64,000 nt of DNA from Patescibacteria group bacterium (GTDB lineage Bacteria; Patescibacteriota; Minisyncoccia; Phycocordibacterales; UBA2100). The stretch lies in assembly GCA_038064535.1 (NCBI GenBank), contig JBBTSX010000009.1, positions 1,603 to 65,602 on the forward strand. The letters are read 5' to 3'. The translations under genes were made by a program, and so were the position numbers. This document shows positions 50,147-64,000 of the stretch, piece by piece (within the stretch, counting starts at the first letter, position 1; each line of letters starts with the position of its first letter). The notes beneath the pieces are model-generated. The model did no database searches, was not told where the DNA came from, and worked only from the letters and a program-made list of their open reading frames with translations.

Positions 50147-50180
50147 TGTACGCGAAAACATGTACGCGAAAACATTCGTA
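50147..50180. repeat. Tandem direct repeat (GTACGCGAAAACAT)x2 plus a partial third unit, upstream of gmd
   Basis: Units at 50147-50160 and 50161-50174, then GTAC at 50177-50180. Confidence 0.6.
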
Positions 50181-50246
50181 CTATGGGCTCCTTGTGTTAT
50201 GCTGGCCGACACTATGGCAAAACAGGCCAAGAAAAGACCAAGGACC

Positions 50247-51251
50247 ATGCCGCGCAAGAAAAAGACGGCCATTATCACCGGTATCACCGGCCAGGACGGT
50301 TCGTATTTGGCGGAACTCCTGCTCTCCAAGGGGTATGAAGTGCACGGTCTCATGCGCCGCGTTTCATCGTTCGCCTCCACCAGCAGGATTGATCATTTGT
50401 TGGAGAATCCCGATTTTTATAAGCATTACGGCGACCTGGACGACAGCCCATCCATCAATGCGCTCATTGCCCGCATACAGCCGGACGAATTTTATAATCT
50501 CGCCGCCATGTCGCAGGTCGGCATCTCGTTTGAGATTCCACGCTACACCATCGTGGCGAATACACTCGGCGTGCTCACCATCCTGGAGACTATCCGCCGC
50601 TTCTCGCCGCACACGAGATTTTACCAGGCATCGAGTTCCGAGATGTTCGGGATCCCGGGAGTGCCCACCCCCTACAACGAGAAGACGCCGATGAATCCAC
50701 GGAGTCCGTACGGTGTCTCAAAGCTCGCCTCGTACCATCTGACGAAACAGTATCGCGACGGATACGGCCTCTTCGCGACCACCGGCATCCTCTTTAACCA
50801 TGAGAGCCCCCGTCGTGGCGAGAACTTTGTCACAAAAAAGGTGACGCAAGCGGTTGCCCGCATCAAGCACGGCCTGCAGAAGACACTCGAACTCGGGAAC
50901 CTCGAAGCGAAGCGGGACTGGGGCTGGTCTCCGGAATTTGTCGAAGCAATCTACCGGATCGTGCAGCACGACAAACCGGACGACTTCGTCGTCGCGACGG
51001 GAGAGACACATACCGTCGGAGAATTCGTCAAAGAAGCGTTCTCGTGCGCCGGTCTCGACTGGAAGAAATATGTAAAACACTCCGATAAACTGACGCGACC
51101 GAACGAGGTACCGCTCCTCCTCGGTGATGCGACGAAGATTAAGAAGACGCTCGGGTGGAAGCCGACGATGAAGTTTAAAGACATTGTGCGGGCGATGGTT
51201 GAACACGATTTGGAGCACCTCGGCAGCTTCCATCAGAAGCGCAACCTATGA
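50247..51251 (+). CDS. gmd: GDP-mannose 4,6-dehydratase
   Basis: TAIITGITGQDGSYLAELLLSKGYEVHGLMRR, TRFYQASSSEMFG, NPRSPYGVSKL and ILFNHESPRRGENFVT are near-identical to Gmd signatures. The start is ambiguous between 50214 and 50247; the track gives 50160. Confidence 0.9.
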   Translation: MPRKKKTAIITGITGQDGSYLAELLLSKGYEVHGLMRRVSSFASTSRIDHLLENPDFYKHYGDLDDSPSINALIARIQPDEFYNLAAMSQVGISFEIPRYTIVANTLGVLTILETIRRFSPHTRFYQASSSEMFGIPGVPTPYNEKTPMNPRSPYGVSKLASYHLTKQYRDGYGLFATTGILFNHESPRRGENFVTKKVTQAVARIKHGLQKTLELGNLEAKRDWGWSPEFVEAIYRIVQHDKPDDFVVATGETHTVGEFVKEAFSCAGLDWKKYVKHSDKLTRPNEVPLLLGDATKIKKTLGWKPTMKFKDIVRAMVEHDLEHLGSFHQKRNL

Positions 51252-51640
51252 TCCAAGAGATTGCCTCGGAGGGTACGGTCTTCGCGATTATCGCGGACAC
51301 AGCCGGCATGTCTGACGGGATACACCCGCTGACCGACCCTGCATTACCGCTCCAAGTGCTCATGCGCAAGCACGGGAAGGGACACCGGATTGGAAAGCAC
51401 GCACACAAGGCACTCGAGAGGACAGCGACACATCTGAACGAGGGCCTGGTCGTTATCAGAGGGGGGCTCCGTGCCCGTATTTTTGACGCCGGAGGAAAAG
51501 ACATCGGTACGTATGATGTCGCACCGGGACAGTGTTTGCTGATGCTCGGCGGCGGGCACGAGCTGGAGATGACGGCGGATACCGTCGTATTCGAATTCAA
51601 AAACGGACCGTATCGTGACGACAAGATCCCGCTTGTATAA
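51248..51640 (+). CDS. Small cupin-like protein, possibly a sugar ketoisomerase of the FdtA/WxcM type
   Basis: 130 aa with a beta-rich HGKGHRIGKHAH...LLMLGGGHELE pattern. ATGA-coupled to gmd. Confidence 0.35.
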   Translation: MIQEIASEGTVFAIIADTAGMSDGIHPLTDPALPLQVLMRKHGKGHRIGKHAHKALERTATHLNEGLVVIRGGLRARIFDAGGKDIGTYDVAPGQCLLMLGGGHELEMTADTVVFEFKNGPYRDDKIPLV

Positions 51641-51650
51641 ACAATATTCT

Positions 51651-52856
51651 ATGGACGCCGCGCGTAAACGGAAAATCGCGATCGTGACTCCCTATGGTGC
51701 GCAGTCGCGTTTCGATAACTACGCCGAATTTATCCTCGGGCAGACTCTCCAAGAGAGGAATTGGCGTGTGCGCTTCTATACGTACGCGGTGTGGAGCGTC
51801 CCCGCATACCGGCACAGCACCACCTACAAAGGTCTCTCCGTCATCCGTTGCAGACAGCGCGTGGGGATTTCTCCGCATCTTTTCTTTGACATACTGTTCA
51901 CCCGGCCCGACGTGGTCATCTGCTTCCATCCGAAGAGTTTTCTGAACTTCACCGCATATATGGCGGCGCGACTGGTCGGCGCAAAGTTTGTTGCGGATAT
52001 CGTGGGAATCTTGCACGACCCGTACATAGTGAATGACACCGACTCGCCGGAAGACAACTTCAAATCTCCGATTCACCTTGTCACAGACTTCAGGGCGTTG
52101 TTGAAAGATGTGTCCGCACGCCGGCTTAAGGGTCTGTGGACGAATTACGTGTGTCACATGCCGACCAAGCACGCGGATGCCATCGTCTCCATGAACACCG
52201 ATGAGAAGAAGTTTGTGCAGATGATATACAATCGCCCGTCGGAACTTATCTACTGGAGCACGCCGCGATACATGGACTATACCGAGTCGAAGCCGGACGC
52301 GGATATCCCGGAACGTTTCTTTCTGTTCATAGGCCAGATCAAACTGCGCAAAGGATGGGACACGGCACTCGAGGCGATGGCCCGTCTGAAGAAAGAAGGG
52401 AAAGACGATGTGCATCTCGTGTTCGTGACACCCTTCAAAGACATGAGCGAGCCGATTGCCTACGCCCGCAAGCTCGACATTCTGTCTTCGGTGACGTTCC
52501 TGTCGGCGGTTTCAAACGAAGAGAAGGGTTGGCTCCTTACCCATTGCACGTACGTACTGATTCCGAGCCGGTACGAGGGATTCGGGCTGGTCGTATTCGA
52601 GGCGTTTTTGGCCAAGAAGCCGGTGTGTGCGACGACAATCAGGAGCTTCCTCGAATTCTTGGAGGACCGGAAGAATGCCATGCTCTATGCCCCGGGAGAC
52701 AGCGAGGGGCTCGCGCGCGCCGTCATCACACTCGATGCCGATACGGGGCTTCAAAAGACGCTGGTGGAAGAGGGTACGCGCACGGCGGAACGTTTTAACT
52801 ACAACCGCATGGTTGACGCATACGTGAACCTTTTCGATTCATTGGGAAGGTCTTGA
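51651..52856 (+). CDS. Glycosyltransferase family 4
   Basis: IAIVTPYG... and C-domain SRYEGFGLVVFEAFLAKKPV. Start taken at ATG 51651, just after the upstream stop; the track gives 51615. Confidence 0.8.
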   Translation: MDAARKRKIAIVTPYGAQSRFDNYAEFILGQTLQERNWRVRFYTYAVWSVPAYRHSTTYKGLSVIRCRQRVGISPHLFFDILFTRPDVVICFHPKSFLNFTAYMAARLVGAKFVADIVGILHDPYIVNDTDSPEDNFKSPIHLVTDFRALLKDVSARRLKGLWTNYVCHMPTKHADAIVSMNTDEKKFVQMIYNRPSELIYWSTPRYMDYTESKPDADIPERFFLFIGQIKLRKGWDTALEAMARLKKEGKDDVHLVFVTPFKDMSEPIAYARKLDILSSVTFLSAVSNEEKGWLLTHCTYVLIPSRYEGFGLVVFEAFLAKKPVCATTIRSFLEFLEDRKNAMLYAPGDSEGLARAVITLDADTGLQKTLVEEGTRTAERFNYNRMVDAYVNLFDSLGRS

Positions 52857-52877: not shown

Positions 52878-53771
52878 ATGTCGAAGTCTAATGTACTTAT
52901 AACCGGAGCGGCGGGCATGCTTGGCAGTGCGTTTTCCGACGAATTCAGTACAGCGGAGTATGATGTCCGCGCACTTTCTCATGAGGAGCTTGATGTCACC
53001 GACAGAGATGCGGTACTGAAGGAAGCCGCTTTCGCGCCGGATATCGTCGTGCACACCGCCGGCATAGTAGATGCCGATTATTGCGAAGTGCATCGCGACG
53101 AGTGTTTCGCCGTTCACGCGGGCGGCACGGGGAACATCATCGAGCTGTGCCGGAAGACGGGGGCCAAGCTACTGTATCCGCAGTCGTTTCTTATCTTTGA
53201 CGGGAAGGAGCAGCCGATAACCGAAGAGACGGAGCCGCGCCCGCTGTCCGTCTACGGAGAGGCCAAGTGGGCTGCGGAGCAGGCGATACGGGATGCTCTT
53301 CCCGACGCACTCATCATCCGCATGGGAGGTTTTTTCGGCGGGTTTGAAAAAGACAAGAATTTTGTCGGCATGTTTGCGCGCTTCATGAAAAAGAATATCG
53401 ATGCGGGGAATCGCTCTCTCGTCGGCACGTCGCGGGTGTGGCAGCCCACGTCGACCGTGGCGCTGGCACACAATGCCCGTATTCTCATTGAGGCCGGCAA
53501 GTCCGGTGTCTATGCGATGGCGAGTCAGGGCAGTGCGTCGTTTTTTGATGTGGCGCGGGCGATGGTGGAGATCATGCATCTCGAAAATCGCATGACTATC
53601 ACCGAAGTCCCGTCGAATCATTTCAAGGAGAAGTGCAGGCGTCCGGAAAACGGGACAATGGAGAACCGGCGCTTGAAAGAGGAGGGGCTTGATATGATGT
53701 CTGAGTGGCGCGACAGTCTCGCGAAGTACCTCTCTGAACCCTACTTTACAGACCTTTTTTCATCATCATGA
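52878..53771 (+). CDS. RmlD-family NDP-4-keto-6-deoxyhexose reductase (dTDP-4-dehydrorhamnose reductase-like)
   Basis: VLITGAAGMLGSAF, LDVTDRDAV, PDIVVHTAGIVDADYCE, YGEAKWAAE (YxxxK). Confidence 0.7.
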   Translation: MSKSNVLITGAAGMLGSAFSDEFSTAEYDVRALSHEELDVTDRDAVLKEAAFAPDIVVHTAGIVDADYCEVHRDECFAVHAGGTGNIIELCRKTGAKLLYPQSFLIFDGKEQPITEETEPRPLSVYGEAKWAAEQAIRDALPDALIIRMGGFFGGFEKDKNFVGMFARFMKKNIDAGNRSLVGTSRVWQPTSTVALAHNARILIEAGKSGVYAMASQGSASFFDVARAMVEIMHLENRMTITEVPSNHFKEKCRRPENGTMENRRLKEEGLDMMSEWRDSLAKYLSEPYFTDLFSSS

Positions 53772-54811
53772 GCGAGTACACGTTTCTGACACCGTTCGAG
53801 AAGGAAGGACTTTCTCTTAAGAATCATCTCGCCATGACGGCGATGACGAGAAACTTCGCCGACGAAAACCATTGCGCCACGGATTTGATGCGGGAGTACT
53901 ACGAGCGCCGCGCGAAAGGGGGAGTGGGACTTATCCTGACCGAAGGCACGGTCATTCATCCCAACGCCGACGGATATCCGGATGTGCCATACATCTATAC
54001 CGATGAACAGATGGAAAGTTGGAAAAAAGTGGTGGCCGCCGTGCAGGCGCAGAACACCAAGATGTTCTGCCAGCTCTGGCACTGCGGACGCATCTCCGAC
54101 CCGGTGTATTTGAACGGAGGGATTCCCGTCTCTGCATCGGACCTGCCCGGTATAGGTGTGCACAGCAGGACCAAGAAACCGTTTGTCGCGCCGCGGGCAC
54201 TCCAGACAGTGGAGATTCCTGATATTGTCGACATGTTCGCCCACTCGACAAAGCAGGCGCTACGCGCGGGGTTTGACGGCGTCGAGGTACATGCCGGTCA
54301 CGGGTACCTCCTTGACGGCTTTTTTGACAGTAACGTGAATAACCGGACGGACGAGTACGGGGGTTCCGTAGAAAACCGCTGTCGCTTCCCGCTGATGGTC
54401 TTCAAGAGGGTGCTGGAGATTGCGGGACCTGTGCGCACGGCCGTGCGCATCTCCCCGTCGCGGGAAATGAACGGCTTGTACGAATGGCCGGATATTGAGG
54501 AGATGCTCGCCTATTTGATTCCCGAGCTTGACGGTATGGGATTGAAAATTCTCGACGTCAGCAGCGCCAGCAGCGATTATTGGAAGACATCGGGCCGCAT
54601 GGTGCGGGCCATACGACCGATGTGGCCGCACGTGCTCATCGCGGGAGCGAGTCTTCCGCCCGAAAAGGCCGACGAAGAGATACAAAGCGGCCTCGTCGAT
54701 ATCGTCACGTACGGAAGGTTTATCCTTGCAAATCCCGATTTTGTGGAAAAGATAACGAAAGGGGAAGAACTCGCGCCCTATTCCAAAGAGCTTCTGAAGA
54801 CTTTGTACTGA
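53768..54811 (+). CDS. Old Yellow Enzyme-family NAD(P)H:flavin oxidoreductase (FMN ene-reductase)
   Basis: NHLAMTAMTRN, GGVGLILTEGT, FDGVEVHAGHGYLLDGFFD...NRTDEYGGS. ATGA-coupled to the RmlD-like gene. Confidence 0.8.
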   Translation: MSEYTFLTPFEKEGLSLKNHLAMTAMTRNFADENHCATDLMREYYERRAKGGVGLILTEGTVIHPNADGYPDVPYIYTDEQMESWKKVVAAVQAQNTKMFCQLWHCGRISDPVYLNGGIPVSASDLPGIGVHSRTKKPFVAPRALQTVEIPDIVDMFAHSTKQALRAGFDGVEVHAGHGYLLDGFFDSNVNNRTDEYGGSVENRCRFPLMVFKRVLEIAGPVRTAVRISPSREMNGLYEWPDIEEMLAYLIPELDGMGLKILDVSSASSDYWKTSGRMVRAIRPMWPHVLIAGASLPPEKADEEIQSGLVDIVTYGRFILANPDFVEKITKGEELAPYSKELLKTLY

Positions 54812-60145: not shown

Positions 60146-60877
60146 ATGGAGTCACACAAGACACAAGGCGCACTGCGTTCGGTGGTGGTCCCCGCTCACA
60201 ACGAGTCGGAGAACTTGGTGGTACTGATACCGCTTCTTACCGGGGCACTGCGTGCGGCAGGTGGACGATTCGAGCTCATTATTGTCAACAATGCGTCGAA
60301 CGACACAACGGCGCAAAAAGTGCCGGAATTTCAAAGGACCATTCCCGAGCTTCGTATGGTCGACGAGCCGGTGCTGGGGTACGGGCGGGCGGTGCTCGCG
60401 GGCCTACGGTCTGCGCGCGGCGATAGTATCGGCATCATGCGGGCGGATAATCAGGAGAAGCCGGAGGATTTGTGCCGCATGTTCGCGGACCTTACGGAGC
60501 GTAACCTGTCTTTCTACAAGGCGGTCCGCAAACACCGCATGGGCGACGGCCTCCTGCGGGTAGTGACCAGTCTTTTCTACAACACTCTCTTCAGGATTCT
60601 GTTCCGGTTGCGTTCACGGGATTTGAATGCGACGCCGAAAGTTTTTACCCGCGAGTTTATGGATGCCGCGCATCTCGTCTCGACCGATTGGTTTATTGAT
60701 GCGGAGATGGTAATCAAAGCGGAGCACATGGGGTACCGTGTCGGCGAGACGGAGATAGAGTACCTTCCGCGCCTCAAAGGGAAGTCGACCGTGCGCGTGC
60801 GGCACGTCTTTGAATTCCTTCGCAATATGATATCGTGGTTCTTTCGAATAAGAAATGGAAAACTTCTGGAACAATAA
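60146..60877 (+). CDS. GT2 polyprenyl-phosphate sugar synthase (DPM1/ArnC/GtrB-like)
   Basis: VVVPAHNESENL, IIVNNASNDTT, ...DNQEKPEDL. Confidence 0.8.
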   Translation: MESHKTQGALRSVVVPAHNESENLVVLIPLLTGALRAAGGRFELIIVNNASNDTTAQKVPEFQRTIPELRMVDEPVLGYGRAVLAGLRSARGDSIGIMRADNQEKPEDLCRMFADLTERNLSFYKAVRKHRMGDGLLRVVTSLFYNTLFRILFRLRSRDLNATPKVFTREFMDAAHLVSTDWFIDAEMVIKAEHMGYRVGETEIEYLPRLKGKSTVRVRHVFEFLRNMISWFFRIRNGKLLEQ

Positions 60878-61859
60878 GAAGGTTTTTATCACGGGGGCGA
60901 ACGGTTTTCTGGGAAGCCATCTGGTCCGGGAGCTGGTACAGCACGGCGCCCGCCCGGTTGTTTTGGTGTACGAGGAAAATCCGGGGGGGATTTTTGAAAC
61001 GGAAGGTCTCGCCGCTCAGACGACCGTCGTACGCGGTGACGTCCGCGACCTTAAGCAGATGAACGAGATTGTGAACTCTCACGGTATAGATACCATATAT
61101 CACCTCGCGGCTCAGGCCCTCATCGACCAGGCAATTGACGACCCTATTGCGACATTTGAGGCGAATATTCAGGGTACATGGAATATTCTGGAAGCCGCGA
61201 AAAAGAGTCCGCAGGTCAAGAGGATAATCGTCGCGTCGTCCGACAAAGCCTATGGAATGCACGAAAACCTCCCGTACCGCGAACACGTGCACCACCTACG
61301 GGCGGGTTACCCGTATGAGGTATCCAAGACGTGTGCCGACCTTATCGCCCAGAGTTTCTACAAGGCATTTCACTTGCCGGTTGTGATAACGCGTTGCGGC
61401 AATCTGTACGGCCCCGGTGACCTGAAGTTGAACCGCCTCGTGCCGCACACAATCTGTCAGCTGTATCACGACCGGCCTCCAATCATCAGGGATACGGGCA
61501 CGTCGGTGCGCGATTATGTCTACATAGGCGATGTGGCGGAAGGGTACCGTCTGCTCGCGGAAAAGATGGATGCCACCTTTTACGGGGAAGCGTTTAATAT
61601 ATCGACAGGCACGCCGCTTTCCGTAGCCGAAGTGATTGCTATGATTTCAACAGAAATGGGAAAGGACATCGAGCCGCAGGTCATCTCGACGCACGGACTG
61701 GAGATACCGCACCAATATGCCTCGTATGATAAAGCAAAAAAGACGTTCGGATGGGAACCCAAGCATTCTTTTGTAGAGGGACTCAAAAAGACTATTCAGT
61801 GGTATGTCGCACACTTCGAGCATGAAAAAACAAAACGGACAATCGCCGTACAGAAATAA
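60855..61859 (+). CDS. NDP-sugar 4,6-dehydratase, CDP-glucose 4,6-dehydratase-like (extended SDR)
   Basis: KVFITGANGFLGSHL, SSDKAYG (the CDP-glucose dehydratase-type SDK motif), YEVSK. It overlaps the upstream gene by 23 nt. Confidence 0.7.
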   Translation: MENFWNNKKVFITGANGFLGSHLVRELVQHGARPVVLVYEENPGGIFETEGLAAQTTVVRGDVRDLKQMNEIVNSHGIDTIYHLAAQALIDQAIDDPIATFEANIQGTWNILEAAKKSPQVKRIIVASSDKAYGMHENLPYREHVHHLRAGYPYEVSKTCADLIAQSFYKAFHLPVVITRCGNLYGPGDLKLNRLVPHTICQLYHDRPPIIRDTGTSVRDYVYIGDVAEGYRLLAEKMDATFYGEAFNISTGTPLSVAEVIAMISTEMGKDIEPQVISTHGLEIPHQYASYDKAKKTFGWEPKHSFVEGLKKTIQWYVAHFEHEKTKRTIAVQK

Positions 61860-61863
61860 GCGC

Positions 61864-62796
61864 GTGCTCGTCACGGGCGCGGACGGATTCATCGGTTCGC
61901 ATCTTGCGGCCCGTCTCGTGCATGTGGGAGCAAACGTGAGCGCTTCGGTACATTCCGCAAAAGATAATTGGAGGCTCGCGTCCGTCGAGGAACAGATACA
62001 GGTGCATGCGGGTGACCTCAGCGATAAGGATACTGCACGTAGAATACTGAAAACGAGCAAGCCCGAAATCGTTTTCAATGTAGCGGGGTCGGTAAATACC
62101 AAGCGCGACCTCAGTGTCATGGACGACGTTCTTCTCAATACGTATGGTCTTACGCATGCAACGCTTCTTGCCTCGCTCGAGGCCGGCGTGGAAAACTTCG
62201 TGCAGTTCGGGACATACGAAGAGTATGGGGCGGCCAAAGCTCCATTCGCCGAATCCGCGCACGAAGAAGCCGTTTCACCCTATTCTCTCGGTAAGCTCAT
62301 GTCTACCAACGAGGTGCGTGTCGTCGCGCGCCTGAAGGGTATACGCGCAACTATCGTGCGACCCGCTGCTACCTTCGGCCCGATGCAGGGTTTCGGCATG
62401 CTGATCCCCAATCTCATACAATCCGGACTCAGGGGGAGTGATTTCGATATGAACGGGGGAGAACAAATCCGTGATTTTGTGTACATCAATGATCTCGTAG
62501 ACGGAGTTATTCTCGCGGGAGCGGCAGAGGGCGCCGCGGGCGAAATTGTCAATCTCGGCGGCAATCGCGGAATCAGAATCAGAGACGTGGCGGAGATGGT
62601 GAACGAGGCGATGGGGAATCCGATAACAATACATTTTGGAGCCTTACCGTACCGCGACCCCGGCAGTAAGGAATTTTATATGGACTCGACGAAGGCAAAG
62701 AAAATACTCGGTTGGTCGGCGAAAACACCGCTCAAAGACGCTATCAGTGAAACGGTGGCGTGGTACCGGGAGCATCTCAACGAAATGTTGTCGTGA
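61864..62796 (+). CDS. NAD-dependent NDP-sugar epimerase/reductase (SDR)
   Basis: VLVTGADGFIGSHL, YSLGKLMS (YxxxK). The start is ambiguous: GTG 61864 lies 4 nt after the upstream stop, while ATG 61822 or 61804 would overlap the upstream gene. Confidence 0.65.
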   Translation: MLVTGADGFIGSHLAARLVHVGANVSASVHSAKDNWRLASVEEQIQVHAGDLSDKDTARRILKTSKPEIVFNVAGSVNTKRDLSVMDDVLLNTYGLTHATLLASLEAGVENFVQFGTYEEYGAAKAPFAESAHEEAVSPYSLGKLMSTNEVRVVARLKGIRATIVRPAATFGPMQGFGMLIPNLIQSGLRGSDFDMNGGEQIRDFVYINDLVDGVILAGAAEGAAGEIVNLGGNRGIRIRDVAEMVNEAMGNPITIHFGALPYRDPGSKEFYMDSTKAKKILGWSAKTPLKDAISETVAWYREHLNEMLS

Positions 62797-62923
62797 TGGC
62801 GCGGTTCTGGCTTGGTGCCGGCCCGAATCCGCTGGCAATGTTGTTCTGCGTTTTCGTCGCACCCCACGTGGCCAGGCTCAAAGGTATTTTCCTTATAAAC
62901 CAGCTGTGTTAGAGTGTCTCGTG

Positions 62924-64000
62924 ATGAAAAAAAGCAGACAAAAGCCGGAAATACGCGTTTCGTACGCACAGGCGGTGTACGGCAAAGAAGAGATAGACGC
63001 GGTCGTTAAGGTGCTCGGAAACCCGAGTAAAATCTCCCCGGGGGCGGCGGTGACCGAGTTTGAAAATAAAATAGCGAAACTGTTCGGAAAGAAGTACGGC
63101 ATCATGGTCAATTCCGGCTCGTCGGCCAATCTGATTGCGTTTGCGGCTTTGGATTTGCCGCCGGGCTCAGAAGTTATTACGCCGGTCCTCACATTCTCGA
63201 CGACCGTTGCGCCGCTTGTGCAGAGAGGTCTGGTGCCGGTGTTCGTGGATGTGGTGGAAGGAGCGCATATAATAGACATCGACAAGGTGGAGGCCGCGAT
63301 AACGAAAAAGACGCGCGCGCTCATGATTCCGTCGCTTTTCGGCAACATCCCGGACTTTCCACGCCTGAAGAAAATTGCCCGTAAGCACAAGCTCGTTCTT
63401 ATAGAAGATTCCTGCGACACACTGGGTGCACAGTGGAACGGAAAGTCTACGGGAATTCACACTGACATCTCGACGACATCGTTCTATGCGACACATGCCA
63501 TCACGGCGGCCGGCGCGGGAGGTATGGTGTGCTTCAACGACCCCAAGCTCGCAAGGCGCGCACGCGTTATGGCGTCGTGGGGGAGACAGTCGACGCTCTT
63601 CGGCGCGTTCGAGAAATCGGAAGATATCAAACGGCGTTTTGCCGGCAGGATAGACGGAGAAGTGTACGATGCAAAATTCCTTTTTACGGAAGTGGGGTAC
63701 AACATGCAGTCGACCGAGCTCAACGGCGCGTTCGGTCTCGTACAACTCACGCGTCTTTCCGGCTTCACGAAACTCCGTCAGCACCGCTTCAAGCAGATTT
63801 ACGATTTTGTAAAGAAGTACGGGCACCTCTTCATTCTTCCGGTACAGGATAGACGTGCTCACACAAGCTGGATGTCGTTCCCGCTCATCATCCGGTCCGG
63901 TGCGCCTTTCACGCGCGCGGAGATAACGAAGTATCTGGAGGAGAGGAATATCCAGACGAGACCGCTTTTCACCGGCAATATTACGCGTCAGCCTGCGTAT
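62924..64000 (+). CDS. PMP-dependent NDP-4-keto-6-deoxyhexose 3-dehydrase (E1/ColD-type, DegT fold with His replacing the Schiff-base Lys). 3'-truncated by the window end.
   Basis: Hand translation MKKSRQKPEIRVSYAQAVYGKEE... In SFYATHAITAAGAGG the His sits exactly where DegT aminotransferases carry Lys (SFHxxK). Not in the ORF track, because there is no stop in the window. Confidence 0.7.
   Translation, partial: MKKSRQKPEIRVSYAQAVYGKEEIDAVVKVLGNPSKISPGAAVTEFENKIAKLFGKKYGIMVNSGSSANLIAFAALDLPPGSEVITPVLTFSTTVAPLVQRGLVPVFVDVVEGAHIIDIDKVEAAITKKTRALMIPSLFGNIPDFPRLKKIARKHKLVLIEDSCDTLGAQWNGKSTGIHTDISTTSFYATHAITAAGAGGMVCFNDPKLARRARVMASWGRQSTLFGAFEKSEDIKRRFAGRIDGEVYDAKFLFTEVGYNMQSTELNGAFGLVQLTRLSGFTKLRQHRFKQIYDFVKKYGHLFILPVQDRRAHTSWMSFPLIIRSGAPFTRAEITKYLEERNIQTRPLFTGNITRQPAY

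Follow-up and report, generated by a model that had tools for sequence, protein, structure and literature searches.

A candidate 3,6-dideoxyhexose module with an iron-sulfur-free 3-dehydrase, and an apparently separate ene-reductase cassette, in a Patescibacteria glycan locus

The evidence supports assigning positions 60855 to 64000 of the window (the whole 64,000-nucleotide stretch of DNA that was analyzed) to a putative 3,6-dideoxyhexose-type module made up of a 4,6-dehydratase, an SDR, and a His-type 3-dehydrase. All three genes that a sequence-only reading had placed there, an SDR with an SSDKAYG motif, a second SDR, and a His-type enzyme of the DegT fold, are present. With confidence somewhat above even, we favor the view that this module is the part of a Patescibacteria surface-glycan locus concerned with nucleotide sugars, that its dehydrase is iron-sulfur free and driven by glutamate, and that a cassette encoding an Old Yellow Enzyme (OYE) elsewhere in the window serves separate tailoring. 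It is unlikely that the OYE replaces an E3 reductase in this window. The DNA derives from a glycan locus of groundwater Patescibacteria.

The predicted NDP-4-keto-6-deoxyhexose 3-dehydrase is encoded on the plus strand from 62924 and runs off the window end at 64000 (Pfam DegT_DnrJ_EryC1, 264 bits); the full-length protein, P0001, has 410 amino acids and would end at the window equivalent of 64156. The segment SFYATHAITAAGAGG at nucleotides 63479-63523 contains His191 (codon 63494-63496). In a HMMER alignment this residue falls on the catalytic His220 of E1 (H in structure 3bcx, K in 3bb8, the H220K mutant), and His occupies the position in 249 of the 249 homologs examined. The proposal that His replaces the Schiff-base Lys is thereby confirmed. 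Among structural relatives, the dehydrase scored 214 bits against E1 (3bcx; 37.5% identity) and 162 bits against ColD (32% identity).

Agnihotri et al. reportedly described the E1 [2Fe-2S] motif in 2004 as C-X57-C-X1-C-X7-C. Numbered from the 3bcx alignment, the ligands are C193, C251, C253, and C261. The alignment, in which the sequence-only reading had suggested looking for these ligands, showed only an equivalent of C193; the other three are absent, the dehydrase having WGRQSTLFGAFEKSEDIKRRF where E1 has WGRDCYCAPGCDNTCKKRF and the loop at the missing ligands reading QSTLFGAFEKSEDI. The RfbH equivalog profile (NCBIfam) gave full-length P0001 343 bits, under the cutoff of 423, compared with 718 to 745 for true, cassette-linked E1s from other phyla. 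With three of four [2Fe-2S] cysteines missing, a subcutoff RfbH score, and membership in a separate clade that is entirely Cys-less, the protein, judged from its sequence, is not a canonical E1, and that identity was rejected. The earlier assignment to an E1/ColD type stands as regards the His position and fails as regards the E1 ligands, which leaves the enzyme ColD-like in its need for a partner. The enzyme might still be redox dependent in the manner of E1 or SpnQ, using other cluster ligands or another electron route through housekeeping ferredoxin/flavodoxin reductases; E1 is closer to it overall than ColD is, and its loop corresponding to that holding the E1 cluster is of similar length. 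We regard this as highly improbable, as P0001 has just three Cys in 410 residues, the two other than the C193 equivalent are not conserved even among relatives with 54 to 62% identity, and the Cys triad (CxC...C) occurs in 0 of 120 close homologs.

Average-linkage clustering placed the dehydrase in a cluster that is wholly Cys-less, mostly from Patescibacteria, and distinct from both E1 and ColD; we know of no characterized member of this clade. The dehydrase combines the catalytic His with the lack of an iron-sulfur site, as ColD-type enzymes do, but its 32% identity and different cluster put it outside the ColD clade. Four loci (L007 to L010) carry the same Cys-less dehydrase with neither an OYE nor an E3. 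As the enzyme has no [2Fe-2S] site, it would not take up electrons from an E3-type partner, and a classical E3 reductase should not be needed. Its chemistry is likeliest to be ColD-like, glutamate driven, and reductase free, which we infer from the missing cluster together with the OYE- and E3-free contexts. ColD and the Campylobacter jejuni 3-dehydratases use PLP and glutamate with no reductase (PMC8987622, PMC10440746). In overall identity, E1 (37.5%) is slightly ahead of ColD (32%), and regeneration of PMP by glutamate is not a property that can be read from sequence.

Two SDR genes precede the dehydrase on the same strand. SDR1 (60855-61859, plus strand, 334 amino acids) is, by motifs and profiles, an extended SDR of the NDP-hexose 4,6-dehydratase type. 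It has GANGFLG (GxxGxxG), the SSDKAYG motif cited earlier (nucleotides 61236-61256), and YEVSK (YxxxK; 61314-61328), so that the glycine motif, the Ser/Thr, the Asp-Lys dyad, and YxxxK are all present. SSDK aligns with STDE of dTDP-glucose 4,6-dehydratase, and dTDP- and CDP-glucose 4,6-dehydratases are its best matches among solved structures. Profile scores were 187 bits for the dTDP-glucose model (TIGR01181) and 185 bits for the CDP-glucose model (TIGR02622, cutoff 278), both under cutoff; an ortholog lying between a cytidylyltransferase and E1 in locus L094 likewise scored only 186.5 with TIGR02622. SDR1 orthologs in Vicinamibacterales (41 to 45% identity) are placed between a glucose-1-phosphate (G1P) cytidylyltransferase and E1. 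SDR2 (61804-62796, plus strand, 330 amino acids; Pfam Epimerase, 140 bits) overlaps SDR1 by 56 nucleotides. It is a GalE-like extended SDR with T/YxxxK whose top PDB matches are UDP-glucose 4-epimerases (about 100 bits), and it is presumed to be a 4-ketoreductase or epimerase. The first 23 nucleotides of SDR1 are shared with the 3' end of a GT2 glycosyltransferase gene (60146..60877, plus strand, 243 amino acids; Pfam Glycos_transf_2, 65.6 bits), and the GT2-SDR arrangement is also present in locus L011; the GT2 protein weakly resembles polyprenyl-phosphate sugar transferases (weak ArnC/PgfS-like NCBIfam matches).

Sequence past 64000 was available from a contig (L002) that is 99.9% identical to the last 5.5 kb of the window. 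It encodes a 155-amino-acid PF01467 nucleotidyltransferase (RfaE-II/TagD-like) and a Wzy_C/TPR protein, and no E3 was found on it. The suggestion that an E3 might lie beyond 64000 was therefore not borne out; these two genes stand where a canonical E3 might have followed, and the outcome that the sequence-only reading had named as refuting its proposal, such an E3 immediately after the module, was not observed. A nucleotidyltransferase does follow, a cytidylyltransferase having been suggested as a possibility there, but it is the small PF01467 enzyme and not DdhA. Relatives have a CDP-glucose-type transferase where this locus has the PF01467 transferase directly downstream, which bears on the identity of the activating nucleotide. 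Within the 64-kb window, tblastn found no E3 homolog and no RfbF-type cytidylyltransferase, in agreement with the sequence-only reading. Searches with five E3-like proteins gave no tblastn match in the window, L001 to L034, or L094 to L096, and the Pfam tables of the loci examined contained no Fer2, FAD_binding_6, or NAD_binding_1 domain. By these searches the cluster encodes no dedicated E3 (Fer2 plus FNR-type reductase).

The proposed substitute for E3 lies in another part of the window. The RmlD-like SDR gene (52878-53771, plus strand, 297 amino acids; Pfam RmlD_sub_bind, 183 bits) and the OYE gene (53768-54811, plus strand, 347 amino acids; PF00724, 231 bits) overlap by ATGA, as had been reported. 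The former protein scored 176.6 bits with TIGR01214 (cutoff 224), and its alignment with RmlD (3sc6) showed a Ser-Tyr-Lys rather than a Thr-Tyr-Lys triad and QSFLIF in place of STDYVF, which holds the TDY substrate motif; equivalence to RmlD, the dTDP-4-dehydrorhamnose reductase, was therefore rejected, and the protein is called RmlD-like only. The OYE matches PDB ene-reductases with 236 bits and about 40% identity. In alignment with solved OYEs, its HAGHGY falls on HSANGY and retains the His175/His178 pair (His/Asn in some OYEs) and the proton donor Tyr180, and these three residues are invariant across 20 orthologs. The protein has the classical OYE fold, a single PF00724 FMN TIM barrel with no ferredoxin/FNR module. 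By its domains, then, it could only be a functional analog of E3 (AscD/DdhD) and not a family member.

These two genes end a tightly packed plus-strand run consisting of gmd, an open reading frame of 130 amino acids, a GT4 glycosyltransferase gene (51615..52856, plus strand; Pfam Glycos_transf_1, 90 bits), and the RmlD-like/OYE pair. The GDP-mannose 4,6-dehydratase gene gmd at its head had been recognized before, but its start at 50247 is an internal Met, and the true span is 50160-51251 on the plus strand (TIGR01472, 410 bits with a cutoff of 415; Pfam, 400 bits). The run is set apart from the dehydrase module by three genes on the minus strand, and by gene layout the OYE sits in a different operon. 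The pair might then serve a GDP-mannose branch, in which gmd would yield GDP-4-keto-6-deoxymannose as the substrate for the RmlD-like enzyme, leading to GDP-D-rhamnose or 6-deoxytalose, with the OYE a cotranscribed general-purpose or detoxifying enzyme. The same gene order from gmd to OYE recurs in L011, and the portions of the literature consulted describe the physiological roles of classical OYEs as generally unclear. However, the window and L011 are the only loci in which gmd stands beside the cassette; about 20 other loci have a CDP-glucose/E1 context or else a G1P cytidylyltransferase gene as a direct neighbor of the OYE, and the strict adjacency to the RmlD-like gene, absent for OYE paralogs, holds in at least seven phyla, which speaks against a housekeeping role. 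We consider a GDP-mannose role distinctly unlikely.

Defined at 47% identity or more, the OYE clade shows 47 to 82% identity within and at most 40% to other OYEs, and it carries the signature FCQLWHCG where other OYEs usually have F/LQLWHVG. Of 24 orthologous loci, 23 have an RmlD-like gene as the immediate upstream neighbor of the OYE. A 3-dehydrase is nearby in 18 of the 23 cassette loci, compared with none of 59 loci of OYE paralogs (p = 6e-14), and the link between OYE and dehydrase that had been intuited from one locus is thus upheld by comparative genomics. The remaining five have no dehydrase within about 10 kb (among them L014, L016, and L025). Cassettes beside 3-dehydrase clusters span at least seven phyla. 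Outside Patescibacteria the dehydrase is a true Fe-S E1 in CDP-glucose operons composed of G1P cytidylyltransferase, CDP-glucose 4,6-dehydratase, Fe-S E1, (RmlC-like), RmlD-like, and OYE genes, with no E3 found within 10 kb. We found no description of the cassette in the searchable literature.

These operons speak for the rival reading in which the OYE, alone or together with the RmlD-like protein, would substitute nonorthologously for E3, feeding electrons or hydride from NAD(P)H to the 3-dehydrase to reduce the 3,4-glucoseen intermediate. The gene sets of cyanobacteria and Acidovorax map to ascA-F with the OYE as the sole gene left for the AscD role, the OYE directly abuts E1 in an archaeal locus (L031), and SpnQ is an Fe-S 3-dehydrase that accepts electrons from non-E3 flavoprotein systems (PMC8987622). 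Against this, the dehydrase of the window offers no Fe-S acceptor, yet five Patescibacteria loci keep the cassette, with intact active-site residues, alongside such Fe-S-less enzymes; Cys-less dehydrases are taken to function without an OYE in L007 to L010; the cassette also occurs in loci with no dehydrase within 10 kb; and no OYE-dehydrase fusions were seen. Among 80 metagenomic E1 loci, E3 was present in 7 and OYE in 1, and since E3 absence is the norm, its absence from OYE loci is not significant (p = 0.59). OYEs act on alkenes that carry an activating electron-withdrawing group; the 3,4-glucoseen intermediate is not such an alkene and is cofactor bound. Direct reduction of the glucoseen by the OYE, as first proposed, is thus chemically unattractive, and with an Fe-S-free, ColD-like dehydrase the problem that the OYE was to solve is probably absent here. 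We give E3 replacement little credence. Most sampled E1 clusters carry neither E3 nor OYE, with alternative tailoring cassettes in the slot downstream of E1. This pattern suggests that the RmlD-like/OYE cassette, too, is an optional tailoring module.

In the pathway that we favor, SDR1 would oxidize and dehydrate an NDP-hexose to the NDP-4-keto-6-deoxyhexose, a role proposed because of its Ser/Asp-Lys/Tyr-Lys residues and because its orthologs stand where a CDP-glucose 4,6-dehydratase would be encoded. The DegT-fold enzyme would then act as a PMP-dependent 3-dehydrase, removing the 3-hydroxyl with His191 as the base. Completion would be ColD-like, hydrolysis of the enamine giving a 4-keto-3,6-dideoxy sugar and ammonia and transamination with glutamate regenerating PMP. 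SDR2 may reduce or epimerize this product to an NDP-3,6-dideoxyhexose, which the products of the flanking GT2, Wzy_C/TPR, and flippase genes would handle. The OYE would not be needed as an E3; with its translationally coupled RmlD-like partner, it would form a conserved cassette of its own. The likeliest role of this cassette is to tailor a 4-keto deoxysugar nucleotide by ene-reduction of an alpha,beta-unsaturated 4-hexulose and then reduction at C4. The substrate might, speculatively, be a delta-2,3 enone from the 4-keto-3,6-dideoxy sugar; no enzyme for 2,3-elimination is evident in the cassette, and the enone is conjecture. The cassette in the window shares its operon with gmd and not with the dehydrase, a counterpoint to this pathway.

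Of the known systems, E1 (DdhC/RfbH/AscC, the Yersinia/Salmonella CDP-6-deoxy-L-threo-D-glycero-4-hexulose 3-dehydrase, 3BCX) is the best solved relative of the dehydrase, sharing the DegT/aspartate-aminotransferase fold, the His at the Schiff-base Lys position, and a location in a glycan locus downstream of a 4,6-dehydratase gene; the window differs in its missing cluster ligands and subcutoff RfbH score and in having neither an E3 partner gene nor an RfbF-type cytidylyltransferase. ColD (GDP-4-keto-6-deoxy-D-mannose 3-dehydratase, 2GMS) and the C. jejuni HS:5/HS:11 GDP-heptose C3-dehydratases are likewise Fe-S-free His-type enzymes, and the same independence of a reductase and regeneration of PMP by glutamate would be expected here. 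Unlike ColD, however, the dehydrase belongs to another sequence cluster and keeps a loop of E1 length where ColD has a deletion, its nucleotide context points more toward CDP, or is unassigned, than toward GDP, and no ColC-like partner is present. SpnQ (TDP-4-keto-2,6-dideoxyglucose 3-dehydrase) is also encoded with no dedicated E3, but it has an Fe-S cluster served by cellular ferredoxin/flavodoxin reductases, whereas the window enzyme lacks the ligands. The asc/ddh operons for CDP-3,6-dideoxyhexoses (ascA-F; ddhD-A-B-C) are matched in non-Patescibacteria cassette loci by equivalogs of ddhA, ddhB, and ddhC that pass the curated cutoffs, frequently accompanied by RmlC-like (AscE-like) and SDR (AscF-like) genes; in place of ddhD/ascD these loci have the coupled RmlD-like gene and a classical OYE, and in the version seen in the window E1 is additionally swapped for the Cys-less dehydrase. 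The cassette OYE resembles NemA, PETNR, OPR3, and SYE in its FMN TIM barrel, the His/His pair that anchors the substrate, and the proton-donating Tyr, but its clade stands alone in its association with an RmlD-like gene and deoxysugar clusters.

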